The notes under the pieces were generated by a model that was not told the DNA's origin, searched no databases, and saw only the letters and a list, made by a program, of their open reading frames with translations. A stretch of 64,000 nt of DNA from contig CBDFJF010000002.1 in NCBI GenBank assembly GCA_965248265.1, forward strand, positions 832,001 to 896,000. Reading direction: 5' to 3'. The translations under genes and the position numbers were made by a program. Shown in pieces: positions 29,334 to 51,530 of this stretch. Each line of letters opens with the position of its first letter. The stretch's first letter is position 1. The DNA is from Candidatus Latescibacterota bacterium (GTDB lineage: Bacteria > Latescibacterota > UBA2968 > UBA8231).

Positions 29334-29335
29334 TC

Positions 29336-31551: not shown

Positions 31552-31613
31552 ATTGCATAGTGCAGCATCGAGAGACACAGGAATCGACGAAAGGAATCAA
31601 GGGCAACATAGAC

Positions 31614-33961: not shown

Positions 33962-34187
33962 GCAAAACTGGACATCAGCAAAGATGAGTGACCTGCTGGC
34001 CATCGCCCTGCTGCTTGATTCCACCATCACGGAATACGTGGAGCATTCGCCTTACACCCTTCCAGCAAATAGATCTTCTTGCGTTGGAAGAGCTGGTTGC
34101 CGAATACCAGCGGCTGAGCGGCCAGGAGACCTCTACTCCCTTGTATCAGAGTAAGGTGAGGACACATCCACTGGCGTAGCTCGAGAT

Positions 34188-34317
34188 GTTGGCAACTGCC
34201 AAGTATTGTCAGCAAATGTTGCCAACTCGGTACTGTCCGCCTTCAGAACGATATTTTCATAAATAGACAGTTATCAACAAGCTACATCAATAATTCCAAT
34301 TCAGGTATGTAACTTGC
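34188..34317 (+). promoter_or_regulatory. Sigma54 promoter 3 with upstream activator motif and IHF-like site
   Basis: AGGTATGTAACTTGC (GG at 34304); GTTGGCAAC at 34188 and ATTGTCAGC-AAAT-GTTGCCAAC at 34205-34226; TATCAACAAGCTA at 34272. Confidence 0.75.
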
Positions 34318-34397
34318 AGGTAGTCAGAGCATGATTCATTGCCCTGCCCAGAACGAAGCGAGGAGCGCTTCCAGAGTGGCAAGAAGGGGAGATACCC

Positions 34398-35360: not shown

Positions 35361-36454
35361 ACATGACGAAAAAGCATCTCCTTCTCGCTTTCATGATGGC
35401 GACGGCCCCAACGACGGTCAGTTTCGCCGACGAGCGTACACGCATCTTCGTCGTCAGTAGCTACCACGCAGAGTACCTGTGGTCGCAGTCGACTCAACAA
35501 GGATTGTGCGAGGCCATGCTGCAGTTTGGCTACCTGGACAACGGCGACCAGATCGACGAGTTCACGCGGACGGATTCCGTCATGAGTTCGACAGCTGTGG
35601 TGAAGAAGGAGTGGATGGACACCAAGCGAAAGAACACGACCTCCGATATTGCCGCGGCGACCGTCCGTATCACGGCGTCGATCGATCGGTTTCGGCCGGA
35701 TGTTGTTCTTCTCGGAGACGACAACGCCGCCAACTACATCGGCAATCAGCTCCTGGACGCGGAGGTTCCGGTGGTTTTCTGGGGCATCAATGGTTTGCCG
35801 CTCAAGTACGGTCTGCTGGATCGACTGGGTCGGCCGGGTCACAACGTGACCGGTGTCTGGCAATCGGGCTATCAGAAGGAAAGCCTGGAGCTGCTCCATG
35901 AGCTCGTGCCGGAGGCGCGGACTTTTGCCATTCTGGCGTGCGATTCGGAGACCTCGAGGCCGAAAGTCAAGCAACTGCAGGTACAGGCGAGACAGGGGGT
36001 TCTGCCCCTGCAGCTTGTCGAAGTGGTCGTAACCAATTCCTATTCCGAGTTCCAGCGCCGCGCTCTTGAACTCGCCGCCCGGGTAGACGCTTTCTTCGTC
36101 CTCAATCACGACACCATGAAGGACGATCAGGGCAATCACGTCGACATGATGACGGTGGGCAAGTGGTATCTGGAACACATCGACAAGCCAGAGACTTCAC
36201 ACGAGGGCCAGTTCGTGCGTGAAGGAATGCTCTGTACGGCGAATGATTCCGGGTACAACCAGGGTTTCGAGGCTTTGACGATGGCGGCGCAGATATTGCA
36301 GGATGGTTTGGATCCCGCGACGATGAGGCCGCGGACACCTGGAAGGGGCCCCCTGATGATGAATGTTCAGCGAGCCCGGATGCTGCGGATAGGGTTCGAA
36401 GCGAAGCTCGACCAAATCGACGAACTGGCACACGAAGCCCTGGCTCTGCAATGA
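35357..36454 (+). CDS. Periplasmic ABC substrate-binding-like sensor protein
   Basis: Signal peptide; VVSSYH, MDTKR, PDVVLLGDDNA, PVVFWGIN, NVTGV. Confidence 0.75.
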   Translation: MNMTKKHLLLAFMMATAPTTVSFADERTRIFVVSSYHAEYLWSQSTQQGLCEAMLQFGYLDNGDQIDEFTRTDSVMSSTAVVKKEWMDTKRKNTTSDIAAATVRITASIDRFRPDVVLLGDDNAANYIGNQLLDAEVPVVFWGINGLPLKYGLLDRLGRPGHNVTGVWQSGYQKESLELLHELVPEARTFAILACDSETSRPKVKQLQVQARQGVLPLQLVEVVVTNSYSEFQRRALELAARVDAFFVLNHDTMKDDQGNHVDMMTVGKWYLEHIDKPETSHEGQFVREGMLCTANDSGYNQGFEALTMAAQILQDGLDPATMRPRTPGRGPLMMNVQRARMLRIGFEAKLDQIDELAHEALALQ

Positions 36455-38787
36455 AGAGTCAGTCCAAGGAGAGGCCTCTTTTCTTCCGGCTTCTACTCGC
36501 ATTCCTGGGTGTCACCCTCTCCATCAGTGCCCTGCTGGTCACCGTTTCGTATGTGTTCAGCAGCCGGTCCGTCGAGGCTCACGCGCGCGAGGCCGTGGAG
36601 ATTCAGCTGGCTGCCGCCGGACGCATGTTCGAGGCAACCTACAGTGACCACCTGGCGAAGACGCTCCAGCGTCTCATCGCCTCAACCGTACTGGACGACT
36701 ACCTGCTGGGATCCGAAGCGGTGAGATTGGTCACGGCCCGGAAACTGGAGAGACTGTTCAAGCAGTCCGCTCGCGAGCTCGAGGCCATCGAAAGCATCTA
36801 TTTCGTCGACTCGCAGGGAAGGGAACGCGTCGGTATCAGCGGCCAACGCAGGGCCGTGGATCTGGTCGATCTTGGGCGATTGTTGCAGAACTCCGGATCG
36901 CCTGCCAGCGAGTCCAACGTGCACAGTGCGGCGGCTGGCCGCGTCTGCGCCGCACTCGCATCGTTGTCGCCAGGCAGCATCTACGTCGACGGGCCGTACC
37001 TCGACGCCCTTGGGAAGGTTTCAATGTTGGTGGGGATCTCCAAGCTCGATCTAGATACGGGAGGGTTCGGCGGCAGCGTTCTCATACGCCTGATTCTCGA
37101 CCCGTTTTTTGACGACCTGGCCGAGCTGAAACTGCTCGGGGTTGCCAGTCCGATCTGGATCGTCTCAGCGACGGGGCATGTACTGCGCGCGCCAGTCAAC
37201 CAGGATGTCACGTTCCATCCCGAGCCCGCTCTGATACGCCAACTGGCATCAGAGCAGGCCGCCGACAAAGAGGTTAGCCTTATCAGTCTGAAGCAGGGGC
37301 TGATGGCGGTCCGTGAGTTGTCCGTCGTCTCCGGAACGACGCAGCTTCGATTAGTGGCCTGCCTGGCGGACGAGCTGCTGCTCAACGAAGTCGAGCCCGT
37401 GCTGCGGTTTTTCTCCATCGTTCTCTCCGTTTCCATCGTCCTGATCATCGTGGTGGCTGGGTGGATGGCACGGGTGTTGTCGTCGCCGATTCGCCGGCTT
37501 GCCGACGCAGCACTCGAGCTCGCCCAGGGTGACCTGTCAACGCGCGTCGAGGTGGAATCGGCAAGCAGTGAAGTCAGGCTTCTCGTGGACAGCTTCAACA
37601 CGATGGCAGAAGCGCGATATCGAGCGGAAGCACTGCTGCGAGTAAGCGAAGAGCGCTTTCGGTCTCTGGTGGAACAGGCCGCGGACGCGATGTTCGTCGT
37701 GGATAGAAGCAACGGCCGCTTCCTTGAGGTGAATCAACAGGCCTGCGTCAGTCTCGGATACAGCCGCGAGGAGCTTCTCGGTCTGCGTGTGCCCGAAATC
37801 CAGAGCAATCACAGTTGGGAAGAATTGGCGAAGAAATTTCAAGGATTGCTCCCAGGCGAGTCGGTCACCATCGAAGGCAACCATCGACGAAAAGACGGCG
37901 CGAAGTTTCCCGTAGAGGTCCGCGTAGGACTGTTCGAGTCAGGTGACCAGCCGTTGCTGGTTGCCCTGGCTCGGGACATTTCCGAACGACGCCGGAACGA
38001 GCAAGCGCGACAGGATGCCGAGGAAGCCCTGGAGCGCCAGCGCACATTAGGCATGCGAGCGGACCGGCTGCGGTCTCTCGGGGAGATGGCGGCCGGCATC
38101 GCCCACGAGCTCAATCAGCCGTTGGTGGGAGTGCGCGGTATAGCGGAGCACCTGCAGATCGCGCTGCAGAAAGGTTGGGATCTGAGCGACGACATGCTGT
38201 TGGAAAAAACGGGCAACATCGTCGCCCAGGCCGATCGCATGACGCACATCATCGAGCATGTGAGGATGTTCGCGCGAGAATCCGGCAAACCGGATCTTTC
38301 GCAGCTGCAGGTCAACGAAGTGGTGTCCGCCGGCATCGAGTTGCTGGGGGCGCAGCTAAGCACGCACGGGATCGAACTGGACGCCGACCTGGCCGAGGAG
38401 TTGCCCCCAGTAGCAGCTAATCCGTACTCGCTCGAGGAGGTTCTCATCAACCTGCTGACCAACGCGCGCGATGCGATCGATGAGCGACGCCAGATTCAGC
38501 CCTCGTTCTACGGCCGTATCACCGTGCGCACGCTGGCCAGGTCCAACGGCGGTGCTCACGATCTGGTCTGTATCGAGGTCGGCGACAACGGACCCGGGAT
38601 ACCGGAGGCTGTACTTCCCAAAATTTTCGATCCGTTTTTCACCACCAAAGATCCCAACAAGGGTACCGGACTTGGACTCGCCATATGTAAATCGATTATC
38701 GAACAATTCGCCGGTCACGTGTCGATCGAATCTACACACGATTCGGGCACGATGGCGACGGTGGCCCTGCCTGTCAGCATGCCGTAA
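36451..38787 (+). CDS. Membrane sensor histidine kinase (periplasmic domain-HAMP-PAS-HisKA-HATPase)
   Basis: Two TM segments, HAMP (PIRRLADAA...FNTMA), [25 protein letters not shown]. Confidence 0.93.
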
Positions 38788-38955
38788 ACGGATCCTTGCC
38801 CGAGAGCCCGGCAGAAGCTACTTTCCTCGCATTGACCCACGGCAACAACCTCTCCCTGAAATTGCTTCCCAGATCTTCCTCCCCGGGAGGATCACGACCT
38901 CCTGTCGTCCGCACCGATCCTGATTAATCGACAGCCGGGCAACCTCTGCCTGGCC

Positions 38956-40857
38956 GTGCTGCTGTGTATGGGTGCCACGGCTGCCTCCGGGCTCGCGTCG
39001 TACACCGATCCACCCGGTTATCCCAGCGCCTGGTCGTCCGCGCTGGGATCGCAAAGCTATACCTTCCAGGGCAGCTCACAGAGCGATCCCAGCGGTGCGG
39101 TGGACGCTTCCGGCGCTGATGTGCCACTTGCCCACGTTGATTTTTCCGCCGGGCCTTCTCAGGATCAGTCTTCCTTCTTCCACACGGCCACCAGTTCGGT
39201 TCTGTTTTTCCGGTTGCGTCTCGCCGGCTCGCCACTGCAGCTGGTGGCCCCTGGGCTTCCGGCAAAAGCGGCGACCTGGAACATCCTCATCGATATCGAT
39301 GGCGACGGTTACAAGGAATTCGCCGTCACCCTGGACGGTGCCGGTGGCAGCGCTGGGCCGGATGACCTAATCGTATGGTTCGGTGATACGGCATCGCAGA
39401 CGTTTTCTACCGGCCAGGAGGTGTGGCGCCAGGACAGTGCCGGTACCGACGATGATGCCGATGGGGCTGAGGGTGGCATACCGCTCTGGGACATCGATGC
39501 TGATCCCTACGTGTGGGATTTTCGCCGCGTCCGAGTCGTCCAGATCGACATGTCCTTGCCCCCGGGAGATGAGGCTTCTGAGTATTTCCTGGATGTACAG
39601 ATCCCGCTAACGGCCTTCGATGCGTCGACCGCAGGCGGAACCGCGCTGTCGTCGTCGACGGCAATCTCCATGACGGCGACCACCGGCTCGAGCTTCACGA
39701 ACCCGCTGCAGCACGATCTGTTGTTCGCGGGTGAGTTTGCCTTGGCCGATGTGCCGTTGCCGATGGGGGACCCGACCGCAGGCAGTAGCGTTTTTCAGGA
39801 GCCAATCGTGACAGCGGTGACGGCCACGGCGTGTCCGGCGCCGCTGTTTCTGAGTGCTACCGTTTTCGACGCGATCGGACCGGGGGGCGGGAGCGTTGCA
39901 ACCACCGTGGCGGCAGTGCAGTTCGAGTCCTACGCGGACTTGAATGCGGATGGGCAGGCGAAGGACGCGGACGGGGAATGGACTCTGATCGGCGGCGCTC
40001 AACAGGGCTCGGGTGGTTTGAGCCAGTGGGGAGGGAGCTGGAACGTCGACCTGTTGCCGAACGGCAATTATCTCGTGCGAGCGTTGGCCACTGATGCGCA
40101 GGGCAACGAGATGGTTTCAACCGAGCAACCGGCGCAATTGCAACAGGTGTCCGTGGTTGCCGGGGTGACCAACGAATGCAGCATCATCCTTTCGTTCGCC
40201 GGTTCAACCCAGTCGGTCATCGACCTCAACGGTGACCCGGTGGCGCCCGGAGACACCCTCGTCTACAACATCACGCTCAAGAACAGTGGTATCGAGGTGC
40301 CCAACGCGACGGTCCGCGATACGCTCGATGTCCAACTGGAGTACGTCGCAGGTTCAGCGGTCCCTGAACCGGCGCAATCCGGTGCGCAGCTGCTGTGGAA
40401 CGTGGGCACGGCCGCTGCCGGCGCTGAGCAAGCGTTTACCTTCGCTGCCCGAGTTCGCGAATCGACCGTCAACCAGACCACGATCGAGAGTCGTGGTTGG
40501 ATCACGACGGGAACGATAGCGGAGTTGGTGACGGCAATTGTGAGCGTGGTTTCCCTGCCGCGGATACAGTTATCGACGACCGTCGACGGCGACACCGGGC
40601 TTCCGGGAGATACCCTGGCCTACCGGGTCATGTACGCGAATGTCGGTACCGACGCGGCGACGGCCGTGCTGATTTCGGATGAGGCGCCGCCGACGGTTTC
40701 GTACGTCAGCAACAGCGTCACCGTAAACGGATTACCCAAAACCGACGCGTCTGATGGCGACAACGTCGAGGTCGCCGAGGACCTCATCTCCGTCGAGATC
40801 GATACCGTGGCCGTCGGGGAAACGGGAGAAATACGTTTCCTGGTTCGCATTGAATAG
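38956..40857 (+). CDS. Secreted DUF11-domain protein A (putative tip adhesin)
   Basis: Signal-like N-terminus (true start may lie slightly upstream), beta-rich N-domain, Ig-like domain (PNGNYLVRALATD), two DUF11 repeats (PGDTL.Y...N.G), the last one truncated. Confidence 0.8.
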   Translation: MLLCMGATAASGLASYTDPPGYPSAWSSALGSQSYTFQGSSQSDPSGAVDASGADVPLAHVDFSAGPSQDQSSFFHTATSSVLFFRLRLAGSPLQLVAPGLPAKAATWNILIDIDGDGYKEFAVTLDGAGGSAGPDDLIVWFGDTASQTFSTGQEVWRQDSAGTDDDADGAEGGIPLWDIDADPYVWDFRRVRVVQIDMSLPPGDEASEYFLDVQIPLTAFDASTAGGTALSSSTAISMTATTGSSFTNPLQHDLLFAGEFALADVPLPMGDPTAGSSVFQEPIVTAVTATACPAPLFLSATVFDAIGPGGGSVATTVAAVQFESYADLNADGQAKDADGEWTLIGGAQQGSGGLSQWGGSWNVDLLPNGNYLVRALATDAQGNEMVSTEQPAQLQQVSVVAGVTNECSIILSFAGSTQSVIDLNGDPVAPGDTLVYNITLKNSGIEVPNATVRDTLDVQLEYVAGSAVPEPAQSGAQLLWNVGTAAAGAEQAFTFAARVRESTVNQTTIESRGWITTGTIAELVTAIVSVVSLPRIQLSTTVDGDTGLPGDTLAYRVMYANVGTDAATAVLISDEAPPTVSYVSNSVTVNGLPKTDASDGDNVEVAEDLISVEIDTVAVGETGEIRFLVRIE

Positions 40858-40883: not shown

Positions 40884-41441
40884 TTGGAGATCAACATGAT
40901 ACGCATCAGGAGGACCTTGGTAACCGCTTGTATGATCGCATCGAGTGCTCAGGCTCAGGCGCCCGTTGACGAAGCGGCCGTGCCCACCGGGCCGCGGATC
41001 GAGATCGTCATCATGGACGATCTGTTGCTGCCATCGGGCGGAACCGGGACCGTGACCAGAGACGGCGCCGGCAATCTCGTAACTCGCCCCGGAGATGTCA
41101 TTCGCTATCGACTGACCGCTTCGAATCGCGGTAGTGAACCGGCACGCAATACCGAACTCCTCGACCCCATTCCCGCCGGGACGGAGTACGTCATCGGCAG
41201 CGCACGTGGGGACGGTATGCGACTGCTCTTCAGTATCGATGGGGGGCGAACATTCAAACCGCAGCCCGTGCGCTATGAAGTCCGGTCGGCGCAGGGGGAG
41301 GTAGTTGAGGTCGCGGCAGAGCCAACGATGTACACCCACGTGAAATGGTCGGATCTGGCTCCGATCTCCCCCGGTGATGCAGTCGAGGCGAGCTTCCAGG
41401 TGCGCGTTTCGCAGCGACAAGATGCTGAGCAGGCGAAATGA
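40884..41441 (+). CDS. Small secreted single-DUF11-like protein B
   Basis: AGGAGG RBS, signal peptide ending AQA, PGDVIRYRLTASNRG...DPIPAGTEYVIGSA, FSIDGG.TF, YTHVKW. Confidence 0.8.
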   Translation: MEINMIRIRRTLVTACMIASSAQAQAPVDEAAVPTGPRIEIVIMDDLLLPSGGTGTVTRDGAGNLVTRPGDVIRYRLTASNRGSEPARNTELLDPIPAGTEYVIGSARGDGMRLLFSIDGGRTFKPQPVRYEVRSAQGEVVEVAAEPTMYTHVKWSDLAPISPGDAVEASFQVRVSQRQDAEQAK

Positions 41442-43231
41442 TGATGACGGACATGATGATGAAAGGATGGACTCAGATGTCGACCCGACGATTGAACTGC
41501 CCCTCCCCTTTCACTCTAGGGGCGATGGGCGGTTTCGTGCTGGCGTGCACTCTCCTGTGCGGCGTTGTCCCTGCGGCAGCGGCCGGGACCCCGGCGGGCA
41601 CCATCATCCGCAATATCGCCATCGCAAACTACGAGGATACCAGTGGCAATCCGCTGCCTCCGGTGGAGTCGAACGAGGTGACGACGATCGTGGCGCAGGT
41701 TGCCGGCGTCGACGTTTCACCCGAAACCTCATTGCACAATGTCATCGCCGGGTCTGCTACCGTGTTCCTGGTGCAGGTTACCAACGTGGGCAATGGCGCG
41801 GACTCATTCCCGTTGACCTTGAGCGGCATCCCGGGTGGTTGGGGGGCGACCATCTACAATGACGTGAACGGCGATGGTGTTCTGGACGCGAGCGAAGAAA
41901 CCACCGAGAACGAGGTCGTGACGCTTTCATTGAACGCCGACGAAATGGCGTCCATCCTGATGAAAGTCGACGCGCCCATCGCGGCCGAGAGTGGTGAGGC
42001 CGTGACGATGACGCTGTCTGCAACATCTGACTTCGACGTCAGCATACAGGATACCGGGACCTACACGGCGAACGTAACGGCGGCGGCAGTCTCTGCATTT
42101 AAGTCAGCCACGCCAAACAATCCGAAGACCGGCGACGTCGTGACTTATACGATCACAGGAGTGAACGAGGGCACGAGTACGGCATTTGCCGTCGCCTATT
42201 CAGATCCATTGCCGACTGGCGTCACCTATGTTCCGGGTTCGATGCGTTTCGGACTCGAGGGGATTACCTATGACAGCGCCACGCCATTGAGCGACGGCGT
42301 CGACGCCGACATCGGTGATTTCAGTGGTTCCGCCGCGAACACGGTGACCTTTCTATGGGGTGATTCGCCTGGACAGCAGGTCGCCGTCCTGTTCTTCCGG
42401 GTCACCGTCATCGCGGAGCTATCCGCCGGCACCGTCGTCAGCAACACCGCCATCGTCAACTACGAAAGCCCACAGGGGATCCAGGCACCGGCCGTCGACA
42501 GCACGCCTGGTCTGTTCACAGTCGCGCCCACACCACTGCCGATCCTGTCGATCACCTCTACAGCCGGTGCCGCTGAAGCAGGTTCGTCGTTGCCTTATCC
42601 CGCCTCCGTGTCCAACGGCGGCAACGCTACTGACATATTCGATATAACGTCGTCTTCGACGGCCGGTCTGTTGTTACAGGTCTGGGTGGACGTCAACGGT
42701 GACGGTATCGCCGGAACAGCCGGTGATTTCGAGCTTACCGACACCGATGCCGACGGAGATCCGGACCTGGGCAGCATCGTCCCCGGCGCCACGGTGGAGT
42801 TGGTGTTCGTCGTAGAAGTCCCCGCTGGCGTCAGCGATGGCACCATCGACGTAACGACCATCATGGTGACGTCGTCGAATGATCCTGCCGTATCGGCTAC
42901 CGGGACGCTGACGACGACCGTCAGGGCGCCAATCGTCGCCGTGAGCAAGTCAGTCGATCCAGCGGGTACTCAGCCACCGGGTCAGGTACTGACCTATACC
43001 GCCATCGTCGCCAACGGCGGTCAGGGCAGTGCCACCAATGTGCTGTTCAGTGACGCGATTCCAACCAGCACGACCTATGTGCCCAACAGCACACTCGTCG
43101 ACGGCGTGCCCAAAACGGACATCGAGGACGGCGACAACGTCGAGTTTTCCAACCGCACCATCATCGTCGATCTGGGTACAATCGGGCCAGAGGGCAGCCA
43201 CACGATCCGCTTCAGCGTGACCATAGACTAG
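41438..43231 (+). CDS. Secreted DUF11 protein C (putative major pilin/shaft)
   Basis: Signal peptide, GTPAGTIIRNIAIANY N-terminal segment, two tandem Ig+DUF11 units, DxNGDG Ca-binding-like loops. Confidence 0.85.
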   Translation: MMMTDMMMKGWTQMSTRRLNCPSPFTLGAMGGFVLACTLLCGVVPAAAAGTPAGTIIRNIAIANYEDTSGNPLPPVESNEVTTIVAQVAGVDVSPETSLHNVIAGSATVFLVQVTNVGNGADSFPLTLSGIPGGWGATIYNDVNGDGVLDASEETTENEVVTLSLNADEMASILMKVDAPIAAESGEAVTMTLSATSDFDVSIQDTGTYTANVTAAAVSAFKSATPNNPKTGDVVTYTITGVNEGTSTAFAVAYSDPLPTGVTYVPGSMRFGLEGITYDSATPLSDGVDADIGDFSGSAANTVTFLWGDSPGQQVAVLFFRVTVIAELSAGTVVSNTAIVNYESPQGIQAPAVDSTPGLFTVAPTPLPILSITSTAGAAEAGSSLPYPASVSNGGNATDIFDITSSSTAGLLLQVWVDVNGDGIAGTAGDFELTDTDADGDPDLGSIVPGATVELVFVVEVPAGVSDGTIDVTTIMVTSSNDPAVSATGTLTTTVRAPIVAVSKSVDPAGTQPPGQVLTYTAIVANGGQGSATNVLFSDAIPTSTTYVPNSTLVDGVPKTDIEDGDNVEFSNRTIIVDLGTIGPEGSHTIRFSVTID

Positions 43232-43287
43232 CGCCGCGACGGCGAGGAGAGAGCATGTTCGTCGCGCAAGGAGTGGGTTGATTGACG

Positions 43288-46200
43288 ATGCGGTTGAGCG
43301 CGCTAGCACTCAGCATCGTCGTCCTGGGATTGCTGGTCAGTGCAGGGGGAGCGCGGACGCCGGTCGGCACCGTCATCTCCAATCAGGCCACTGTTTCCTT
43401 TACTGACCACGGCGGACAGTCGCTCGTCAGCCACAGCGACATCGCCCGCCTGACCGTGGCCGCCGGCGTCCGCCTCGCCGTCACCGTCGACGCCCTTCCC
43501 AATCCCGTGGCGCCTGGCGACAGCCTCACGGTCGACGTCATCATAGAAAATCCAGGCAACACCGCGGCACAGGAAGTCCTCCTGACCATGGTGACGGACG
43601 TTGTCGGCTCGGTGGCCGCATTCGCCGACAGTGCTGCCATTGTTGAAGGACGGCAGATTTCCTGGCCGGCGGTGGAGATCACACCGGGTTCTCGCGTGCT
43701 GCGGCGATTTCGCGTCCACATCGATTCAACGGCTCAACACGGATCGGACTTCGGACTTGAGGCGACGGTGATCGCGGCCAATGTCGACGAACCACTGCTG
43801 CTCACCAGGCGGGTCAATATCGACTTCGCGCCCCGCCTCGTCCTCACGAAAGACGCTGATCGGGACAGCGTCACTGCCGGGGGGGTGGTTGAGTACTCCG
43901 TCCATTGCGTCAACACGGGCAATGCGACGGCGCGCGGAGTGAGGGTGCGCGATGATGTGGCGAGTGCGCTGACTCCATCATCCTCCTCACGGCCGTTCAC
44001 GAAAGCGGGATCGGTGCTGACCTGGGACGTCGGTGACCTGGAGGCCGGCGCGGTCGTTTCTTTCCAACTGCTCGTTCGCGTCAGTGACGGGGTAGTCACC
44101 GGCAGCAGCCTGCTCAACCAGGTAAGCGCGACGGCGATGGCCACCGGGCCGGATGGTGCCCCGCGATCGTTCGTCTCAGAGTCCCCCACCGTCACCGTGA
44201 CGGTGATCGATCCCGCCTTGAGTCTGGCCAAGATGGTTCAGTCAGAGTTGCCAGTTCCGGGGCGGGGTGATGTGATTGCGTATCGGCTGGAGTTGACGAA
44301 TGCCGCCGCCATTGCCGCCGGCTCCGTGGTGTTACGCGATACCCTGCCTGAACCCTTGCGGTTTGTATCGGCTGAGGCGGAGGTGCCAGTGTCGGTGAGG
44401 GAGCAGATCGTCGAGGCGACGTGGCCCGAGGTCGTTGCCGGCTCAACAGTCTTCCTGAGCATCCTGGCTCGGGTGGACTCCGTGGATACGCTGCCAGAGC
44501 TCATCACGAATCGGGCCTGGGCAGAGTCTTCCATTTCGGTGATTCCATCCAACGCCGTTGAGACGACGCTGCGCCTGGACGAGCCGACGGACGGCGAGTT
44601 GGAGCAACCCAGCAGAATCTTTGCCGGCGCGGACCTGACAATTGAGGTGCGCGACGCCGATGCCAACCACCATCCGACGGTAATCGACACCGTCACGGTC
44701 GGTGTCACCAATCAACGCAGCGGTGAGGTGGAGACACTGCTGCTACCGGAAACGGGCGTCGACACCGGTGTGTTCACGGGTGCAGTTGGAACCGCGCACA
44801 GCCAGGAACGGGGGGAGGATAACGATGGCCATCTGTTCGCTGTGCCAGCCGATCAGCTGGTCAGTACCTATTCAGACCTGCTAACGGCAACGGGCGAACC
44901 CGCGCAACGGTTGGCTCAGACCGAGGTGGCTTTGACATCGATCGCCTTGCGCGTTTATCCAGATGCCATCGTCGCCAACGGGACCGAGCGTGCCATTTTC
45001 ACAGCTACGCTGACCGATGACGAAGGCCTGCCGCTACCCGATGGCACGCCAGTGGTATGGCGGACGGATGCGGGAGTCTTCACGGAGGTGTCTGTCGACG
45101 ACGACGGACAGGCGATGACGAAGACGGTCGGGGGTGGTGGCGAAGCCAGGGTGGCGTTGACGGGGCCGCAGCTGACCCGGCGTGACACACTCATCGTCAT
45201 TGCCTCTCTAGCAGGTTTTGATTCGAATCCACTCGCACTGCAACTGCTGCCCGGCGCCATTGGTGTTCGTGTCTTCGACGATGAGCGCGGCATCGAGGTG
45301 ACGGCGGCCGATCCGGACCTGGAGGTGACGGTACGGGTTTCGGGAAGCACTTCAGCGGGGGCATCACTGTCGGAGGATATCGATCTGGACGACAATGGGG
45401 TCTTCGTCGTCGATCAGCTCCCACCGGGTGACTACTCTCTGGACGTCACGGTCGAAGACGCTGCCACGGGCAGGTTGGTTTTCGCCGGCTTGCTGCAACA
45501 GATCAGCGTCAACGACGACGGCACGGCCACCCCTCCAAAGAACAGCGTCAGCGGCAGCCTCCGTGGCCGTTCCGAATCCTCCGGAGGGCGCTATGCCGGT
45601 AGCATCGTCGAATTGCTGGACAGAGCCACAGGGGCCGTCGTCGACGAGGGTGTCGCGGATACCGATGGTGGCTATCAGTTCCACAACCTGAATCCGGGTG
45701 CCTACGATCTGCGTGTTGTCTTCGATGACGGGACCGTGGTCACGCGTCCAGTGCCCGAGCCGAGTGAGGTCATCGGAACGGCGCTCGTCAACACCGATAT
45801 CCTCATCGATCCGTTCGGTATCGTCTTCGACGCCAGCAGCGGGGAGGCTGTCCCCGGGGTGGAAGTCAGTCTGCGGATGGCCGATGACACGGTTGTGCCG
45901 CTTCCGGGTCTCAACGGAACGGGGGCCGTACCCAACGATGACAACGTCAACCCGTTTACGACAGGAGTTGACGGACGCTACGCCTTCCTGTTCGGCGGTA
46001 ACCAGGTAGGCGCCTTCGGCCGGCCACAGATGTACACCATGGCAGTCAATCCCGATGAGGGGTCTTCATTCTTGCCAAGACGGCTGCTGCTGAGTGTACA
46101 GCCGAGTCGAGCCGGACCGGTCGAATCGACGCCGATCACGATGCGGGTGAGTGCTGCCGATGGCTTGCCGTTGGCAGTTCCAAACTCCTTCGCCCTGACC

Positions 46201-48453
46201 ACGGATGATGTCGTACTCGCCGACATCGAAACCATCGCCCTGCACCTGCCGCTGTTCGCCCGCGCTGCAGTACTCGAATTCGCCAAGATCGCCCTCAGCG
46301 ACACCGTGGCACCCGGAGAATCAGTCGATTTCGGACTTGCCATCGCCAATACCGGCAATGACACCGCTCGCGCCGTACTACTGACCGACTCGCTGGGCGT
46401 CGGCTGGGAGATCGAATGGACAGACCGCGGGACCCTGGCGGCGACGGACGTCGTGCGCTGGGAACTGGGTGATATCGCACCGGGAAGGCGCGATACCCTC
46501 GGGCTGCGCGCCCGCGTCATCGCACCTCAGGCACACGGGACGGTCCTGACCAACCGTGCTCATCTGAGCGTCACGGAGGGCTTCCCGTTGCGTGCTGAGA
46601 CCGCGGTCGTCGTGCACAGTACACCCCTTTGGATACTCTCCAAACAGGCCCTGGCCGACAGTGTTACCTCCAGCCAGGACGTGGAGTACCTGCTTGAGTA
46701 CAGAAACGACGGCACGGGTGTGGCCCGCGGTGGTAGCCTCGTCGACACGCTCGCAGCCGGACTCAGTGTGGTGGCCGCAGAGGGAGCCCAGATAGACGGC
46801 AATGTCGTGCGTTGGTCGCTTGAAGATGTAGCCGTGGGCGCCACCGGCAGCCGGCGGTTGGTGGCGCGAGTCGACGCTGACTTGGTCCCGGGTAGCCTGG
46901 TTTCCAACAGAGCAGTCGTGCTCGCCCCTGATGGATCTGTCGCCGCCGCCGATTCGGCCAGCGTTATCACGCGCGCGCCGCGGATGAATCTGGTCAAGCG
47001 CGCCCTGGTCGATACTGTCACCCAGGGGGACCGGGCAACCTTCACGATCACCGTCACCAACGAGGGTGAAACGCCGGTCACTTCCGTGACGCTGGTGGAT
47101 TCACTGCCTCTTGAGTTGAGCATCGTCGACGCAGCCGATGCCGTCGTCCCGGATGCAGTCGCCGTCGAGCCGGGAGCCGTTACCTGGCAGCTTGACTCTC
47201 TGGCCGCGGGGGCAGCCGACACTTTCAGGGTAACGGTTGAAACGGAAGAAGCGGCGCTAGTCACGAACCAAGCGCGGCTGTTGATCGCATCGCAAACGAT
47301 CGCCACGGCGACGGCCACGATTGCCGTGCGTGAGCGTCCTCCGCTCGAAGTCGGTCTGGTCGCAGACGCCCCCACGCTGGAGGCGGGGGCAGTCATCACG
47401 TACACGGCACACCTGCGGGCGCCGTCATCGATCGCGGGTCAGGTCGTCGTCACCGACAGTCTGCCCGCAGCCCTCGTGTATCAAACCAGTCTGGATGGCC
47501 CGCAGCCTGAGTACGATTCCGACAGCAACGTGCTGACGTGGACGATCGCTGACCTGGGCCCAGAGGGTCCGCTGACGCTGATCTTCACGGCCGCGGTCTC
47601 GGAAGGTCTACCGCCCGGAGAATCGGTGGTGCAAAACCGGGTGGTCGCACAGCTGGGCGCTCAGCAGTTCGTTTCGGAGCGCGTCGAGACGCTGGTTACC
47701 GTGCCGTTTTTGAGGATCGAGAAGTCAGCTGATGTGACCGTCGTCGAGGTCGGTGACTTCGTCGAGTACCGCATTCAGTTACAGAACACGAGCGCGGGAA
47801 CGGACACGCTGCGCAACATCCTCATAAACGATTGGACACCGCCCGGTTTCCGCTATGCGGAAAGCACGGCCGTACTAGACGGAGTACCGCAGCAGCCGAG
47901 TCAACCCGGCTCAGGATTACTCCTGTGGTCCGTGCCGCCACTGGCGGGCAACGACGTTTCAGAGCTGATCTACCGACTGGTAGTCGGGCTCGATGCACCA
48001 TTTGGCGATGGCGACAACACGGTACGGGTCACGGCGCAGACGGCTCGCGGGGCCGATCAGGACGCTGGTCCCGTGTCGGCTCGGGTACGGGTACGCCCGG
48101 ATCTGTTCTCGCGCGGAGAGCTCATTCTGGGACGCGCCTGGATCGACGCCGATGGGGACGGTCTTTTCGACTACGACGAGGAGGTGGTCCCCGGCATCGC
48201 CCTGCTCATGGAAGATGGCACGCGCATCATCGCTGACCGCCACGGCAAGTTTTCGGTCCCCGAAGTCAGACCTGGAGATCACGTGCTGCGTGTACTCAAG
48301 CACAATCTCACCGGTCTGGAACCGACAGCCCTCGGCAGCAGGTCCGCCGGAGATCCCTGGTCGCGCTTCGTGACCGTACCGGTAGCCGGGTCTGCGAAGG
48401 CGAATTTCCCGTTCCGCCGACCAGATGAGAGTCAAACGGTGCAGGAGCCATGA
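43288..48453 (+). CDS. Large multi-DUF11 / Ig / SdrD-B-like surface protein D (putative base or stalk)
   Basis: Signal peptide, TPVGTVISNQATVSF, about 8 DUF11 repeats, invasin-like and prealbumin-like folds, C-terminal GRAWIDADGDG...PGI.L.MEDG. Confidence 0.85.
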   Translation: MRLSALALSIVVLGLLVSAGGARTPVGTVISNQATVSFTDHGGQSLVSHSDIARLTVAAGVRLAVTVDALPNPVAPGDSLTVDVIIENPGNTAAQEVLLTMVTDVVGSVAAFADSAAIVEGRQISWPAVEITPGSRVLRRFRVHIDSTAQHGSDFGLEATVIAANVDEPLLLTRRVNIDFAPRLVLTKDADRDSVTAGGVVEYSVHCVNTGNATARGVRVRDDVASALTPSSSSRPFTKAGSVLTWDVGDLEAGAVVSFQLLVRVSDGVVTGSSLLNQVSATAMATGPDGAPRSFVSESPTVTVTVIDPALSLAKMVQSELPVPGRGDVIAYRLELTNAAAIAAGSVVLRDTLPEPLRFVSAEAEVPVSVREQIVEATWPEVVAGSTVFLSILARVDSVDTLPELITNRAWAESSISVIPSNAVETTLRLDEPTDGELEQPSRIFAGADLTIEVRDADANHHPTVIDTVTVGVTNQRSGEVETLLLPETGVDTGVFTGAVGTAHSQERGEDNDGHLFAVPADQLVSTYSDLLTATGEPAQRLAQTEVALTSIALRVYPDAIVANGTERAIFTATLTDDEGLPLPDGTPVVWRTDAGVFTEVSVDDDGQAMTKTVGGGGEARVALTGPQLTRRDTLIVIASLAGFDSNPLALQLLPGAIGVRVFDDERGIEVTAADPDLEVTVRVSGSTSAGASLSEDIDLDDNGVFVVDQLPPGDYSLDVTVEDAATGRLVFAGLLQQISVNDDGTATPPKNSVSGSLRGRSESSGGRYAGSIVELLDRATGAVVDEGVADTDGGYQFHNLNPGAYDLRVVFDDGTVVTRPVPEPSEVIGTALVNTDILIDPFGIVFDASSGEAVPGVEVSLRMADDTVVPLPGLNGTGAVPNDDNVNPFTTGVDGRYAFLFGGNQVGAFGRPQMYTMAVNPDEGSSFLPRRLLLSVQPSRAGPVESTPITMRVSAADGLPLAVPNSFALTTDDVVLADIETIALHLPLFARAAVLEFAKIALSDTVAPGESVDFGLAIANTGNDTARAVLLTDSLGVGWEIEWTDRGTLAATDVVRWELGDIAPGRRDTLGLRARVIAPQAHGTVLTNRAHLSVTEGFPLRAETAVVVHSTPLWILSKQALADSVTSSQDVEYLLEYRNDGTGVARGGSLVDTLAAGLSVVAAEGAQIDGNVVRWSLEDVAVGATGSRRLVARVDADLVPGSLVSNRAVVLAPDGSVAAADSASVITRAPRMNLVKRALVDTVTQGDRATFTITVTNEGETPVTSVTLVDSLPLELSIVDAADAVVPDAVAVEPGAVTWQLDSLAAGAADTFRVTVETEEAALVTNQARLLIASQTIATATATIAVRERPPLEVGLVADAPTLEAGAVITYTAHLRAPSSIAGQVVVTDSLPAALVYQTSLDGPQPEYDSDSNVLTWTIADLGPEGPLTLIFTAAVSEGLPPGESVVQNRVVAQLGAQQFVSERVETLVTVPFLRIEKSADVTVVEVGDFVEYRIQLQNTSAGTDTLRNILINDWTPPGFRYAESTAVLDGVPQQPSQPGSGLLLWSVPPLAGNDVSELIYRLVVGLDAPFGDGDNTVRVTAQTARGADQDAGPVSARVRVRPDLFSRGELILGRAWIDADGDGLFDYDEEVVPGIALLMEDGTRIIADRHGKFSVPEVRPGDHVLRVLKHNLTGLEPTALGSRSAGDPWSRFVTVPVAGSAKANFPFRRPDESQTVQEP

Positions 48454-51400
48454 GGTTTATCGTCCTTGTCGGCTGCTGCATCGTCCTCGTTGTGGCCGAT
48501 GCCCTGGACGCCGTCGAAATCCAAACGCCGGCTGACAGCAGCGTCACCTACAGGGACCGGATAGCCGTTATCGCACTCGGATTGCCTGGAGTTCCCGCGA
48601 CGCTGGATGTCAATGGCGATCCCGTCGAGACCCTGGTCGTGCGCGCCGACGCGCGAGTTGACTTTCTGAATGTGGCTCTGCCCTCGGGGCCTGTCCTGTT
48701 GAGTGTGCGACAACGTATGCCGAACGGTGAGCGCAAGGCAGACAGTACTCGCATTCATGTTGTCGGCACGGCCAGTGAAGTCCTGATCGAGTTGGAGCAC
48801 ACGACGCTACCTGCTGACAGTTTGTCCCGGAGCCGCGTCGATGTCAGGGTTGTGGACGATTGGGGTATGACGCTCCCGGATGGTCAGCTCATCAATGTGA
48901 GTCTGGATCGCGGCCAAGTGCTGGCGGAAGATCTCTATGCGGCCGAACCCGGTGTACAGGTGCAGGTGCGGGATGGCCGGGCCTCGTTTGACATCATTTC
49001 GGCTGCTTCCGTGGGGGAGGGCCTGCTGCGGCTCAGCGCGGACGGGGCGCAATCAGTCCAATGGATCGGCTACACGCAACCCGTTGAGGATTGGACCGTG
49101 GTTGGGCTGGCTACTGCTCAGCTGGGTTGGCGCTCGGACAAACCGGCACCGCAAGGGATCGCGCCGCCGGCTGCCTTCAAGGGTGGCGCCTACGCCGACG
49201 GAAAAACGGCGGTGTATGCACGGGGCACGGTGGCTGACGACTACCTGCTTGTGACTTCCTACGATTTTGAACGCGACTACGACGATCGCGTCTTCCGCTT
49301 TCTCACCCCGGAACGGGTGTATCCCATCTATGGCGATGCCAGTTCCATCTTTTACGAAGCGCCATCGGCGAGTCCGTTCTACGCCAAACTATCGCGGGGA
49401 CGGGATCATCTGATGTACGGCGACTTTGCAACGCGGATGGGCGCAGACTCGGAAGTGGCTGCATACAACCGCTCCTTAACCGGAGTGTCGACGCGATTGG
49501 AAACCGAACGGGGGATGAAGGTGAAGGTCTTCGGGGCGTCCACGGATCAGTCCATACAGGTAGACGAGGTGCGGGGGGAAGGAGTCTCGGGGTACTACTA
49601 CCTGTCAGCCGCCGGCCGCGGCGTACCGATCGTCGAAGGCAGTGAACGCGTCGTCATTCAGGTGCGCGATCGCCTCCATCCCGAACTCGTCCTCAAGGAG
49701 GATGTCCGATATCGTTTTACTGACTACGAAATCGACTACGAGGCGGGCACGCTATTGTTCAAGCGACCGGTGCCCAGTGTCAGTCCCGAAGAGCACCCCG
49801 TCTTCATCGTGACGACGTACGAGGCCACCCGCTCGATCGAACAGCGCTGGACCGGAGGCGGCCATGTCGAGGTACCGATTCGGGAGCGCTGGCAACTCGG
49901 TGCCACGGCCGTGGGTGAAGAGGGGGAGGCGCGAGAGAACTATTGGCTCACAGCCGTCGACGGTCGCTTTGTGCCCACGGATGACGTCAGTGCACGGCTG
50001 GAGGTGGCGCGCTCGATGGCGGAGGCGGACGGCTGGGCATGGAAGGCGGCTGTGCGTGGTCGACTGACGGGGGAGCACCTGAGTTACGATCTTCAGGTAC
50101 GGGATGCGGGTCGCAACTTCGACAATCCCAGCAGCCCAACGGTACGGGCAGGAGTGCGCAAGGTGCGGGGTCGCGCGGTGTGGTCGCCCGCAAGTGGCAC
50201 CGAAGTGACGGCAGAATCACATAGCCTCAGCGACCGTGTCAATGATGAGGAGCGTTCCAGTGTCGCCCTGGCCACGCGCTGGTGCTGGCGGGCCCTGGAC
50301 AATCGGCTAGGCGTCGATCGTACTCGCAGCGACAGACGGAGTCAGTCCTTTCACAGTCGTACGGTCAGCGCCGCGACTTCGTGGGCGGCGTTGCCGCGGT
50401 GGACTCTCGGGGCGCAACGCGATCAGACCTTCGGTGATCAGGACCTCAGCTACCGGCCCACGCTCACGACCCTGCGCAGTCGATGGAAGCTCAACGAGCG
50501 CAGCGACCTGATCGTCGAACACGCCTTTCGTGATGGCAGTCCAATCGATTCCAGCTTCACGGCGGCGGCGCTGCAATCGAAGGTCGGCGACGATGCGACC
50601 GCCTACGCCAACTACCAGATCGACGGCGGCATTGCCGGCAGGCAGAACCAAGCTATCGTTGGTCTGCGCCATTCTTACCATCCGCGATCTCACCTGAGTG
50701 TGCACACGGCATTCGAGCGCACGTGGACGCTGCGTCAGAACGACGCCTCCAACTTCTACGCCTACAGCCTGGCAGCCGAATTTCTGCCGCCGAGAGATTT
50801 CAAGACGAGTGCTCGCTTCGAACAGCGCCGCGGCAGATCGCTGGACAAGACCGTTATCTCCGGGGCACTCGACCTGGCTGTGGGTGGAGACCTGTTCGTG
50901 TTGACGAAACAGGTCTATACGGATGAGGAGCGGGCACAGAGCAGCGGACCCAGCGGAGCGAAGGCGGGGATTCGAGCGTACCGAATCGCGAACGGGCTCG
51001 CCTATCGTCCCAGTCGTCACGATCACCTGAATGGGCTGGCTCGCTACGAACGGCGCTACGAACGCAACACCCTGGTCACGCCCGCGCATCGACGTTGGAC
51101 CGACATCGGCTCATTCGAGTTCATCTTCGAACCGAAGTCGCAGATCGAATGGTTCGCCCGCTATGCCTTCAAGATTGCTGACTTGACGACACGCGGGTTG
51201 TCAACGGAGACGCTGACGGATCTGTGGATGACGAACCTGCGCCTGGAGTGGGGGGCAAAGGCGCGCTGGGATGTGCTGGGGGAATACCGTCTGCTCACGC
51301 AGCATTACGCCGGAGAGCGCATCCACGGGGCGTCAGCGGAATGCGGCTGGATCTTCACCGGCAACGCTCGGGTGGCCGGCGGCTACAACTTTGCCGGTTT

Positions 51401-51530
51401 TCACGACGGTGATCTGGCCGGGCTTTCGTATTGGGCTCGCGGACCCTATCTCAAGATCCAGAGCAAGTTCTCGGAGGCCGCTGTTGCTCCATGGCTGGAG
51501 GGCATGCAGAGCGCGTGGGACAGCTGGTAG
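48450..51530 (+). CDS. Large outer-membrane beta-barrel protein E with N-terminal Ig-like domains
   Basis: Signal peptide, LPADSLS...VVDDWG Ig domain, YPIYGDAS, YNRSLTG, DYEIDYEAGTLLF, long alternating beta pattern ending GGYNFAGF...GPYLKIQSKF; ATGA overlap with D. Confidence 0.78.
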   Translation: MRFIVLVGCCIVLVVADALDAVEIQTPADSSVTYRDRIAVIALGLPGVPATLDVNGDPVETLVVRADARVDFLNVALPSGPVLLSVRQRMPNGERKADSTRIHVVGTASEVLIELEHTTLPADSLSRSRVDVRVVDDWGMTLPDGQLINVSLDRGQVLAEDLYAAEPGVQVQVRDGRASFDIISAASVGEGLLRLSADGAQSVQWIGYTQPVEDWTVVGLATAQLGWRSDKPAPQGIAPPAAFKGGAYADGKTAVYARGTVADDYLLVTSYDFERDYDDRVFRFLTPERVYPIYGDASSIFYEAPSASPFYAKLSRGRDHLMYGDFATRMGADSEVAAYNRSLTGVSTRLETERGMKVKVFGASTDQSIQVDEVRGEGVSGYYYLSAAGRGVPIVEGSERVVIQVRDRLHPELVLKEDVRYRFTDYEIDYEAGTLLFKRPVPSVSPEEHPVFIVTTYEATRSIEQRWTGGGHVEVPIRERWQLGATAVGEEGEARENYWLTAVDGRFVPTDDVSARLEVARSMAEADGWAWKAAVRGRLTGEHLSYDLQVRDAGRNFDNPSSPTVRAGVRKVRGRAVWSPASGTEVTAESHSLSDRVNDEERSSVALATRWCWRALDNRLGVDRTRSDRRSQSFHSRTVSAATSWAALPRWTLGAQRDQTFGDQDLSYRPTLTTLRSRWKLNERSDLIVEHAFRDGSPIDSSFTAAALQSKVGDDATAYANYQIDGGIAGRQNQAIVGLRHSYHPRSHLSVHTAFERTWTLRQNDASNFYAYSLAAEFLPPRDFKTSARFEQRRGRSLDKTVISGALDLAVGGDLFVLTKQVYTDEERAQSSGPSGAKAGIRAYRIANGLAYRPSRHDHLNGLARYERRYERNTLVTPAHRRWTDIGSFEFIFEPKSQIEWFARYAFKIADLTTRGLSTETLTDLWMTNLRLEWGAKARWDVLGEYRLLTQHYAGERIHGASAECGWIFTGNARVAGGYNFAGFHDGDLAGLSYWARGPYLKIQSKFSEAAVAPWLEGMQSAWDSW

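Follow-up and report, generated by a model that had tools for sequence, protein, structure and literature searches.

We consider it rather probable that protein C, one of five neighbouring gene products (A to E) encoded in the window (the whole stretch of 64,000 nucleotides that was analysed), is the shaft subunit of a strand-complemented, isopeptide-locked surface fibre of the form A-(C)n-D-E, a reading reached by computation from sequence and structure models. C is a real duplication of two units. Since its last domain is without the two strands that its own N-terminus carries, head-to-tail joining of C chains is probable, and perhaps covalent. The genes concerned are:

38956..40857, + strand: gene A, 633 aa as called, candidate tip protein; an N-terminal region without known domain, then DUF11 domains
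40884..41441, + strand: gene B, 185 aa, small and secreted, its one DUF11-like core incomplete
41438-43231, + strand: protein C, two-unit duplication, residues 1-597 plus stop codon
43282..48453, + strand: gene D, 1723 aa, candidate base subunit; many complete DUF11 domains, with Big_1 and SdrD_B-like domains in addition (Pfam)
43348-43461, + strand: donor-like segment of D (residues 23-60), directly after the signal peptide
48450..51530, + strand: gene E, 1026 aa, signal peptide, two Ig-like domains and a very large predicted outer-membrane beta-barrel

The gene order A-B-C-D-E was repeated in all four further genomes examined. Occurrence of the operon is patchy, at 7 of the 151 genomes sampled in the phylum, the genome of the window counted. 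A promoter scan was uninformative (3 promoter-like sites, 2.4 expected), as was a terminator scan (12 terminator-like sites against 7.4 ± 2.8). Within C, the following parts were delimited, all on the same strand:

41438..41581, + strand: residues 1-48, leader, in which the -3/-1 rule points to a signal-peptidase I site (A-x-A, just ahead of A49)
41582..41701, + strand: residues 49-88, N-terminal donor segment, corresponding to the two final strands of a CLIPPER domain (segment match; part of the modelled interface)
41612-41614, + strand: Asn59 of the donor segment
41702..42079, + strand: residues 89-214, domain X1, a beta-sandwich by the strands of its AF2 model, carrying the motifs N.GN..D and D.NGDG
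42080..42412, + strand: residues 215-325, core of the first CLIPPER/DUF11 domain (Pfam DUF11, 53.5 bits)
42101-42103 and 42203-42205, + strand: triad residues Lys222 and Asp256 of the first domain
42413..42532, + strand: residues 326-365, internal segment copy that closes the first CLIPPER domain in cis (gapless match to 49-88)
42443-42445, + strand: Asn336 of the internal copy
42533..42919, + strand: residues 366-494, beta-sandwich domain X2, a copy of X1 (alignment to X1; AF2 strands)
42920..43231, + strand: residues 495-597 plus stop, incomplete second CLIPPER domain (acceptor), ending before the Asn strands
42947-42949 and 43052-43054, + strand: acceptor residues Lys504 and Asp539

The duplication is apparent at the level of both the segment and the unit. 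An earlier note on this DNA had proposed that the N-terminal segment of C aligns without gaps to an internal one, and the comparison bears this out: the N-terminal 35-mer and the internal 35-mer align gaplessly with 14/35 identities, and when the N-terminal 35-mer is compared by Smith-Waterman with the remainder of C the score is 67, a value reached by none of 1000 shuffles (mean 31.1, sd 4.4, max 48). The first copy (TPAGTIIRN...) has its first residue, 51, at 41588 and the second (LSAGTVVSN...) has its first residue, 328, at 42419, so that the coordinates given for C in the note were off by at most one codon (41585 in place of 41588 for TPAGTIIRN...). The repeat spans the entire units, beyond the segment alone, with residues 51-327 scoring 261 against residues 328-597 (300 shuffles, 57.6 ± 10.1, max 95; z = 20) and 77 of 235 aligned residues identical. 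The internal repeat that a self-comparison was expected to reveal is thus highly significant. Using the complete first DUF11 domain (215-362) as a phmmer query against the same protein, residues 49-79 fell on the last part of the query (positions 112-142, i-E 1.1e-4), and its first part (positions 4-56) was matched by residues 500-553 (i-E 2.5e-8); both placements are from the first round only, as the second-round model already contained the segment.

The domains of C belong to a family with known isopeptide chemistry. C matches PF01345 (DUF11) in two stretches with 53.5 bits (cut-off 24.6) and TIGR01451 with 83.7 bits (cut-off 24), the latter also above the curated cut-off. A sequence profile (alignment A1) matches PDB 9IFR with E 0.0023. 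In the available text of PMC12617251, the CLIPPER triad of Lys, Asp and Asn is described as an isopeptide triad seen crystallographically (9IFR), with Lys in the first strand, followed by Asp, and with Asn in the penultimate strand. The first domain of C has the full triad in cis (K222, D256, N336), with K and D aligning with the 9IFR sequence. In the AF2 model, residues 216-364 resemble CnaA-like pilin and collagen-binding domains (Z 11-13.1, rmsd 2.5-3.0 Å, about 130 residues aligned), among them the sortase pilin BcpA (Z 13.1, rmsd 2.8 Å, 128 aligned); 9IFR was not among the best 50 structural matches of these residues. A Foldseek search with the whole-C model returned generic multi-Ig matches only (TM ~0.2) and was set aside. 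Family matches of X1 were weak and sub-threshold (choice_anch_T at 31 bits against a cut-off of 70, and also GEVED), while its residues N116, G118, N119 and D122 are invariant in homologues.

Placed side by side, the two domains show where the chain is divided. The last residue of C, D597, aligns to I325, just before the internal segment, and A49 aligns to A326; the second DUF11 domain is therefore left with Lys and Asp but without the Asn strands. The two claims made earlier on this point both stand, namely that the internal copy completes the first DUF11 domain in cis (gapless match of 326-365 to 49-88) and that the second domain keeps Lys (42947, Lys504) and Asp (in SDAIP, Asp539) but has no such segment, ending at D597. 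The second domain has K504 and D539 with no Asn in cis, and N59 sits in the N-terminal segment. It could be argued that nothing is complemented here: the hairpin would belong to X1, the last domain would be a shorter variant that is complete with seven strands, and C would be a multi-Ig surface protein of the usual kind with an offset in the phase of its repeats. Compact seven-strand relatives (DUF7507) do exist, as described in the available text of PMC12617251, and the last domain of C matches DUF7507. That match covers only profile positions 1-50 of 105 and the match to DUF7927 only positions 3-95 of 132, while the triad Asn of those families, on the same text, lies beyond. A conserved Lys and Asp would be purposeless without an Asn, the chains of 39 of 39 homologues end at one column, and the docking model with its controls, described below, is also opposed. 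We regard this explanation as very improbable indeed, and return to strand complementation.

The neighbouring proteins were compared with C by alignment, since counting strands in A-D by regular expressions overlooked the majority of the domains. Protein A matches Pfam DUF11 (1.2e-14), and its last DUF11 domain is cut off ahead of the Asn strands, with the C-terminus ...IRFLVRIE falling at the same end column as that of C. Its mature N-terminus is not donor-like (the score against the C segment was reached by 266 of 1000 shuffles), and its true start is probably upstream of the called one. At the Lys position A has T in the window and K in all four other genomes. A look-alike search with residues 15-420 of A gave a best score of 0.85 and no usable lead as to tip function. 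Protein B matches TIGR01451 (2.1e-11) and, narrowly, Pfam DUF11 (24.9 bits, cut-off 24.6); it ends about 10 residues past the F.VRV strand, has no Lys at the aligned position (R-D is found there in 5/5 genomes) and has no donor segment, its N-terminus being unlike the C segment (score reached by 776/1000 shuffles). B may be a non-covalent cap or chaperone-like partner. In the case of D the arrangement is reversed, with an N-terminus that scores 53 against the C segment (0/1000 shuffles) and no incomplete C-terminal domain.

Because A and B have the incomplete domain only and D the N-terminal segment only, complementation between chains is required. The earlier note had taken the duplication of C as the strongest internal evidence for polymerisation; the duplication holds, but a stronger argument for joining in trans comes from the lone halves that A, B and D carry. 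The same halves bear on whether the N-terminal segment of C could fold into its own C-terminal domain, with or without an isopeptide, to give a ring-like monomer acting as a stand-alone adhesin or stalk: at least A, B and D would have to pair in trans. Precedents for such cis complementation are available. Discontiguous CnaA-like domains are known, for example GBS104-like_Ig (3TXA, residues 137-211 and 587-717) in the available text of PMC12617251. Some Gram-positive tip pilins assemble a domain from N- and C-terminal pieces. In the AF2 monomer of C, residues 50-85 have a pLDDT of 87-92, which is compatible with docking in cis, and the contacts of the docking model would be identical. Against this, the junction from segment to X domain is gapless between the cis copy and the N-terminus, so that an extended geometry is expected and not a fold-back, and the donor segment is more conserved than its internal copy (figures below), as expected if it fits several partners. 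We judge closure in cis to be quite unlikely, and favour joining between chains.

Docking of the two halves of C is consistent with a rebuilt domain. For residues 492-597 with residues 49-215, the complex model gave ipSAE values of 0.86, 0.85 and 0.86 against 0.00 for the best of three controls, though a complex built from pieces of C gives the same result in cis or in trans and may rebuild a split domain by its likeness to intact ones. Among solved complexes, 58 of 80 attain the mark of the tool, compared with 2 of 110 mismatched pairs. Between runs, 99% or more of the contacts were in common, the pLDDT of the partners was at least 91, and the modelled interface placed residues 57-68 and 76-86 against 500-506, 509-514, 530-545 and 596-597. 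Another possibility is that chains do join in trans without homopolymerisation, C being a single-use adaptor in a defined A-C-D chain on E, its segment fitting only A (or B) and its acceptor taking only the D segment. There is one gene per subunit type, the complex tool also passes close cousins of the true partner, and C, already a double unit, could be a spacer of fixed length; yet pairing of C with C was itself modelled at 0.86. The donor and acceptor triad residues are moreover co-conserved in C, and lost together in one homologue, which fits self-pairing, though D-to-C and C-to-A pairing would conserve them likewise. An adaptor role appears unlikely to us, and a C shaft of one or more units is preferred.

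Conservation was assessed in 39 homologues of C with 32-86% identity to it. The putative leader cleavage site is well kept, with position 48 being A in 35 of 39 and position 46 being A, V, S or T in 35 of 39; residues 1-48 have a pLDDT below 50 in the AF2 model. All 39 terminate at the column of D597. Of these homologues, 36/39 retain the split triad K504/D539/N59 in full and 29/39 the cis triad K222/D256/N336; individually, K504 and D539 are each kept in 38/39, N59 in 36/39 and N336 in 37/39. The sole homologue without K504 is also without D539 and N59, having R, G and H instead. Residues 49-88 are the most conserved part of C, with a mean majority fraction of 0.73 against 0.44 for the internal copy, and the incomplete core is likewise ahead of the complete one (0.61 against 0.52). 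The trans-acting halves of C are under more constraint than their cis counterparts. Head and tail are constant across the family and the middle varies: the single-unit homologues of about 300 aa that the earlier note had called for were found, accounting for 11 of the 12 short matches fetched (the twelfth is a fragment), alongside one form of 453 aa and five of about 900 aa. In 5/11 single-unit homologues the position that aligns with Asn is Ser or Ala, and the putative isopeptide lock is thus not universal. A pattern search of genome contigs from the C protein alone gave 138 matches, of which none was confirmed.

From these observations we propose the following scheme, in which interchain polymerisation and the covalent bond are both probable on sequence and model evidence. 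Subunits would end in a CLIPPER (DUF11, CnaA-like) domain short of its last two strands, and donor subunits would start, directly after signal-peptide cleavage, with those exact two strands. The N-terminal hairpin of one chain would enter the C-terminal domain of another to give a whole CLIPPER domain nicked between D597 and A49, and this insertion would bring the incoming Asn59 beside Lys504 and Asp539 of the acceptor. These residues correspond to the triad responsible for the spontaneous isopeptide bond of intact CLIPPER domains, and the bond here would be interchain. Because C is two fused units, its internal junction (core, 326-365, X2) can serve as a model, in cis, of how chains would join in trans. 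The fibre would probably run from A (acceptor only, at the tip) through one or more C to D (donor only, at the base), and the giant outer-membrane barrel E would hold D or be fused to it. Export through E, the count of C units in each fibre and whatever part B may play are inferred.

Protein E is the putative anchor of the fibre, and D is often fused to it in relatives. E has no Pfam or NCBIfam match and no PDB sequence match at E-values up to 1. Its AF2 model (pLDDT 81.3) contains about 36 long antiparallel strands over residues 216-1008; Foldseek matches, none of them close, include the large barrels SprA, LptD, SlpA and MtrB. Look-alikes fall in clusters without a name, apart from one row labelled 'outer membrane protein' (DUF2490 in 14% of members, score 0.91), and the barrel family comprises at least 2815 clusters at 50% identity, in no curated family. 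The host genome (completeness 92.28%, 13 Omp85 matches) is on sequence grounds that of a diderm. No PapD-like chaperone or PF00577 usher appears in Pfam scans of A-E and 12 flanking proteins, no chaperone or other assembly factor was identified for the operon, and the A-E operon has no peptidase gene.

Several known systems share parts of this scheme. The CLIPPER domains of PMC12617251 (9IFR) are, in its available text, of the same family, with the same triad and in Gram-negative surface proteins, but there the domain is whole, the bond intrachain, and the domains form stalks of single-chain adhesins, whereas the terminal domain of C would be split across chains; the words 'split' and 'truncated' are absent from the main text of that paper. 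BsaA of Clostridium perfringens (TasA family) combines a donor strand with a lock: as described in the available text of bioRxiv 10.1101/2024.11.04.621531, its N-terminal stretch enters the sheet of the next subunit, and 'donor-strand exchange and lock' involves an Asn-Lys isopeptide that forms spontaneously, with an acidic residue of the acceptor as catalyst. On the same text BsaA differs in having a TasA-like fold, an N-E-K triad, a monoderm host and SipW processing, with no outer-membrane component; C has a CnaA-like domain, Asp as the acidic residue, a two-strand hairpin as donor and a giant barrel in its system. No TasA- or camelysin-like subunit was found among A-D, all Pfam matches of these proteins being to DUF11-type and related Ig families. 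The thread of Sulfolobus acidocaldarius is described, in the available text of PMC9715654, as uniting donor-strand complementation with isopeptide bonds between subunits; it is archaeal, of an unrelated subunit family and without an outer membrane.

Chaperone-usher pili (Fim, Pap) similarly have, in the available text of PMC11821415, a tip that is an acceptor without donor and an outer-membrane pore at the base. The present system would differ from them in a donor of two strands and not one, a probable covalent lock, and a barrel of no known family that is often fused to the base. The archaeal donor-strand fimbria of PMC11821415 is, as far as its available text goes, unrelated, and its term match is to DUF1102, not DUF11. 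Sortase pili (BcpA, RrgB, SpaD, EbpB) have the same CnaA-like fold (Z 11-13) and form covalent isopeptide-linked fibres, in which sortase links the pilin-motif Lys to the C-terminal Thr of LPXTG. The link in C would instead be autocatalytic and within a rebuilt domain; PF04203 (sortase) has 0 matches in the 92.28% complete genome, and an LPXTG-like motif (LP.T[GAS]) occurs in the last 60 residues of 0/39 C homologues. In Tag/Catcher pairs such as SpyTag/SpyCatcher, an isopeptide domain is split into a peptide and a remainder that spontaneously reconstitute and bond. These engineered pairs are man-made splits of CnaB-type domains, whereas in C a CnaA-type domain would be split by nature and serve polymerisation. 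Type Va autotransporters have the same order of passenger (D) and barrel (E) as the fused relatives, but their C-terminal barrel has 12 strands (PF03797), unlike E with its lack of a Pfam match and about 36 long strands in the model.

No published description of such a split-CLIPPER fibre was found in the literature. Whether the operon stands for a widespread, unpublished class of diderm fibre is a matter on which we are evenly balanced; in such a class, subunits would be natural Tag/Catchers built on a split CnaA-like CLIPPER domain, joined without sortase or chaperone by a spontaneous interchain Lys-Asn lock, and exported and anchored by a barrel of about 36 strands and of a new family, mostly fused to the base subunit. 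If the proposal is true, it would describe a covalent pilus-like fibre of Gram-negative, diderm bacteria that follows a principle known to date from archaeal threads and clostridial BsaA alone, using a Gram-positive pilin fold without sortase, and its machinery would be new as well, including the E barrel family. Residues 49-88 and 495-597 of C are a candidate natural CnaA-type Tag/Catcher pair, for which the double unit in C would itself show what the joined state looks like, and the family would offer many diverged donor-acceptor pairs that might be orthogonal.

Five co-oriented genes on the forward strand form a cluster in the window, with reading frames that overlap by four bases at B/C and at D/E.

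Genes of the cluster
38956–40857, + strand, gene A
40884–41441, + strand, gene B
41438–43231, + strand, gene C
43282–48453, + strand, gene D
48450–51530, + strand, gene E

DUF11-type domains are present in each of A, B, C and D, and gene E matched no family in Pfam or NCBIfam. Two-component and sigma-54 regulator genes lie 5′ of the cluster and housekeeping genes lie 3′ of it on the opposite strand. The regulator run adjoining the operon upstream (27975–38787) holds a sigma-54 activator, two PAS histidine kinases, a hybrid kinase, a cNMP-binding response regulator, a periplasmic binding protein and a HAMP-PAS kinase, and these regulators may control the fibre operon. Gene A is called from GTG at 38956, leaving an uncharged leader of only 14 residues; the frame stays open further 5′, reading ...LSSAPILINRQPGNLCLA (window 38886–38956), with GGAGGA at 38886–38891 and CTG at 38902. 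As judged from sequence, a start at this CTG would yield a normal signal peptide, like that of the homologue in the related locus L017. Protein C as listed starts MMMTDMMMKGWTQ (window 41438–41479), ahead of Met14, and because Met14 is nearly invariant among homologues, the true start may be 41477.

The earlier note had described C, the candidate shaft subunit, as a tandem duplication of a donor, Ig and acceptor unit, and the duplication is confirmed. An N-terminal 35-mer (TPAGTIIRN... from residue 51, 41588) aligns without gaps to an internal one (LSAGTVVSN... from residue 328, 42419) with 14 identities, and its score against the remainder of C is 67, compared with 31.1 ± 4.4 (maximum 48) in 1000 shuffles. 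The repeat covers the whole unit: residues 51–327 score 261 against residues 328–597 (300 shuffles, 57.6 ± 10.1; z = 20), with 77 of 235 positions identical.

Layout of protein C, encoded on the + strand
Residues 1–48, leader
Residues 49–88, segment
Residues 89–214, beta-sandwich X1
Residues 215–325, first CLIPPER core
Residues 326–365, segment copy
Residues 366–494, X2
Residues 495–597, second CLIPPER core, followed by the stop

In each X domain a D.NGDG..D loop (residues 139–147 and 415–423; window about 41852–41878 and 42680–42706) resembles calcium-binding DxDxDG loops, and the profile of A1, our 39-row alignment of C, weakly matches PDB chain 3VDZ (E 0.006), which is rich in DxDxDG-like loops.

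CLIPPER is the new name of DUF11, a CnaA-like sandwich in which an isopeptide bond links a first-strand Lys to a penultimate-strand Asn with the assistance of an Asp, the triad in 9IFR being K715, D748 and N806 (PMC12617251). The first CLIPPER domain of C carries K222, D256 and N336, and the match of the C-family profile to the 9IFR sequence (E 0.0023) aligns the Lys and the Asp. Residues 216–364 in the AF2 model of C (mean pLDDT 85.7, pTM 0.53) resemble CnaA-like domains known from sortase pilins and from collagen adhesins, with Z 13.1 and rmsd 2.8 Å over 128 aligned residues for BcpA and Z 11–12.5 for EbpB, PilA, RrgB and SpaD.

The C-terminal domain of C spans just positions 3–95 of 132 in DUF7927 and 1–50 of 105 in DUF7507. 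Residues 500–553 map to the first part of the complete first domain (query 215–362; i-E 2.5e-8) and residues 49–79 to its last part (i-E 1.1e-4). This second domain has the Lys and Asp that the note had reported (K504, D539) and, as it had also stated, no segment; the sole Asn in a suitable context, N59, belongs to the N-terminal segment. The gapless alignment pairs D597 with I325 and A49 with A326, so that a segment inserted in trans would restore the layout of the first domain with one nick and no residue missing or extra.

Scoring 8000 candidates gave 189 homologues at E ≤ 1e-3, from which A1 was assembled as C plus 38 two-unit homologues (32–86% identity with C), chosen by eye among P0002–P0061 with fragments and near-duplicates omitted. 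All 39 sequences end at the D597 column, with no LPXTG-like motif in any of them. Ala occupies position 48 in 35 of 39, and position 46 is A, V, S or T in 35 of 39, from which we infer a signal-peptidase I site, and cleavage, before residue 49. Conservation in C is highest in the N-terminal segment (majority fraction 0.73 versus 0.44 for the internal copy), and it is higher in the incomplete core (0.61) than in the complete one (0.52). The split triad K504/D539/N59 is complete in 36 of 39 sequences and the cis triad in 29; one homologue has R/G/H in place of all three split-triad residues.

Single-unit homologues, which the duplication had led the note to predict, do exist. Searching the shorter proteins returned 40 matches; of 12 sequences inspected, one is a fragment and 11 (286–325 aa) consist of leader, segment, X and incomplete CLIPPER core. 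The Lys strand and Asp motif are kept in all 11, and the aligned Asn position holds Asn in six and Ser or Ala in five. The same head and tail enclose a different middle in a 453-aa protein and in five others of about 900 aa. A quick, unrooted maximum-likelihood tree covered 88 units (39 first, 39 second and 10 single; P0123 and P0148 omitted). Branches with SH-aLRT 97 separate its first units from its second units, and the singles split five per side. The duplication is therefore older than the 39 sampled two-unit proteins.

We modelled residues 492–597 in complex with residues 49–215, using the 39-row alignment for each. The ipSAE was 0.86, 0.85 and 0.86, and the best of three controls scored 0.00. 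In the tool's calibration, 58 of 80 solved complexes reach its mark, as do 2 of 110 mismatched pairs, which holds only roughly for a custom alignment. Contacts agree between runs to at least 99%, with partner pLDDT at least 91. Strand 57–68 lies on 530–545 (the Asp strand), strand 76–86 on 500–506 (the Lys strand) and 509–514, and the interface includes both chain ends, 596–597 and 49–51. The model supports binding of the segment to the acceptor domain, though it may have rebuilt a split domain by its likeness to whole ones, and it fits joining in trans and in cis alike.

Joining in trans is favoured over joining in cis because the neighbours A, B and D each have one half without its counterpart. 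The last domains of A and B are incomplete like that of C (...IRFLVRIE, and ...FQVRVSQ plus nine residues), and their mature N-termini are unlike the segment, with scores reached by 266 and 776 of 1000 shuffles, respectively. D carries a C-like segment directly after its leader (score 53, reached by 0 of 1000 shuffles; 42 against the internal copy of C, 1 of 1000), and its last domain, SdrD_B/CarboxypepD_reg-like, is complete. The order A-B-C-D-E and the pattern of unmatched halves were found again in all four further genomes examined; a sample of 151 genomes of the phylum had C in 7, one of them the window's own. The Lys position of the A acceptor is Lys in 4 of 4 related genomes and Thr in the window (40560–40580; A residues about 535–545), so the tip joint may be non-covalent in this organism. 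B has Arg-Asp at the Lys position in 5 of 5 genomes, and any binding of a segment by B would thus be non-covalent only. B (40884–41441), which is small and secreted, is conserved, as is its N-terminal strand (I.I..D.L.LP), and its CLIPPER-like core is incomplete; one could speculate that B caps donor segments or acts like a chaperone.

The model of E, built from the 24-row alignment A2 (pLDDT 81.3, pTM 0.65), has a leader, two Ig-like domains and then about 36 long antiparallel strands within residues 216–1008. Foldseek found no close relative of this model; its matches include the large outer-membrane barrels SprA, LptD, SlpA and MtrB at TM about 0.2. The E family comprises 2815 representative clusters (50% identity) at E ≤ 1e-3 and 1176 at ≤ 1e-30. 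Among the best 150 relatives, 110 are at least 1300 aa with the E module C-terminal, and a strict donor-like motif occurs in the first 100 residues of 49 of the 110 long forms versus 1 of 28 stand-alone forms; several more look donor-like by eye. The family is without a curated model and mostly makes up the C-terminal half of proteins about 2000 aa long (P0162–P0311), often with donor-like N-termini. D and E are one reading frame in two of four related loci (L017 and L019; 2451 and 2402 aa), and are ambiguous in L018 and L020, where breaks lie elsewhere, perhaps through frameshifts or assembly errors. In the window they are separate, with an ATGA overlap at 48450–48453 and a leader on E. Searching the genome (92.28% completeness) gave 13 matches to the Omp85 family and none to sortase.

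We propose that Sec would carry the subunits across the inner membrane and that, after leader removal, the hairpin 49–88 of one chain would complete the last domain of another, a Lys504–Asn59 isopeptide bond forming beside Asp539 as in whole CLIPPER domains. A offers only an acceptor and would end the chain at the distal tip; D offers only a donor and would end it on the cell side, attached to barrel E or fused with it, and this barrel could perhaps be wide enough for folded subunits to pass. New subunits might be added at the base, as by an usher, or at the tip, with D as the nucleus; the sequence is compatible with both. The principle of strand exchange plus isopeptide bond is already known from BsaA (bioRxiv 10.1101/2024.11.04.621531) and is reported for archaeal threads (PMC9715654); a literature search of open-access main texts returned no description of a split CLIPPER/DUF11 fibre. 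The reading of C as a donor/acceptor polymer, for which the note had taken the duplication as evidence, is supported as far as computation goes. What the window contributes is the double unit, in which the internal junction of C is a reference in cis against which to read the trans joint. That the cis and terminal halves differ in conservation is the clearest sign within the protein that the terminal ones function between molecules.
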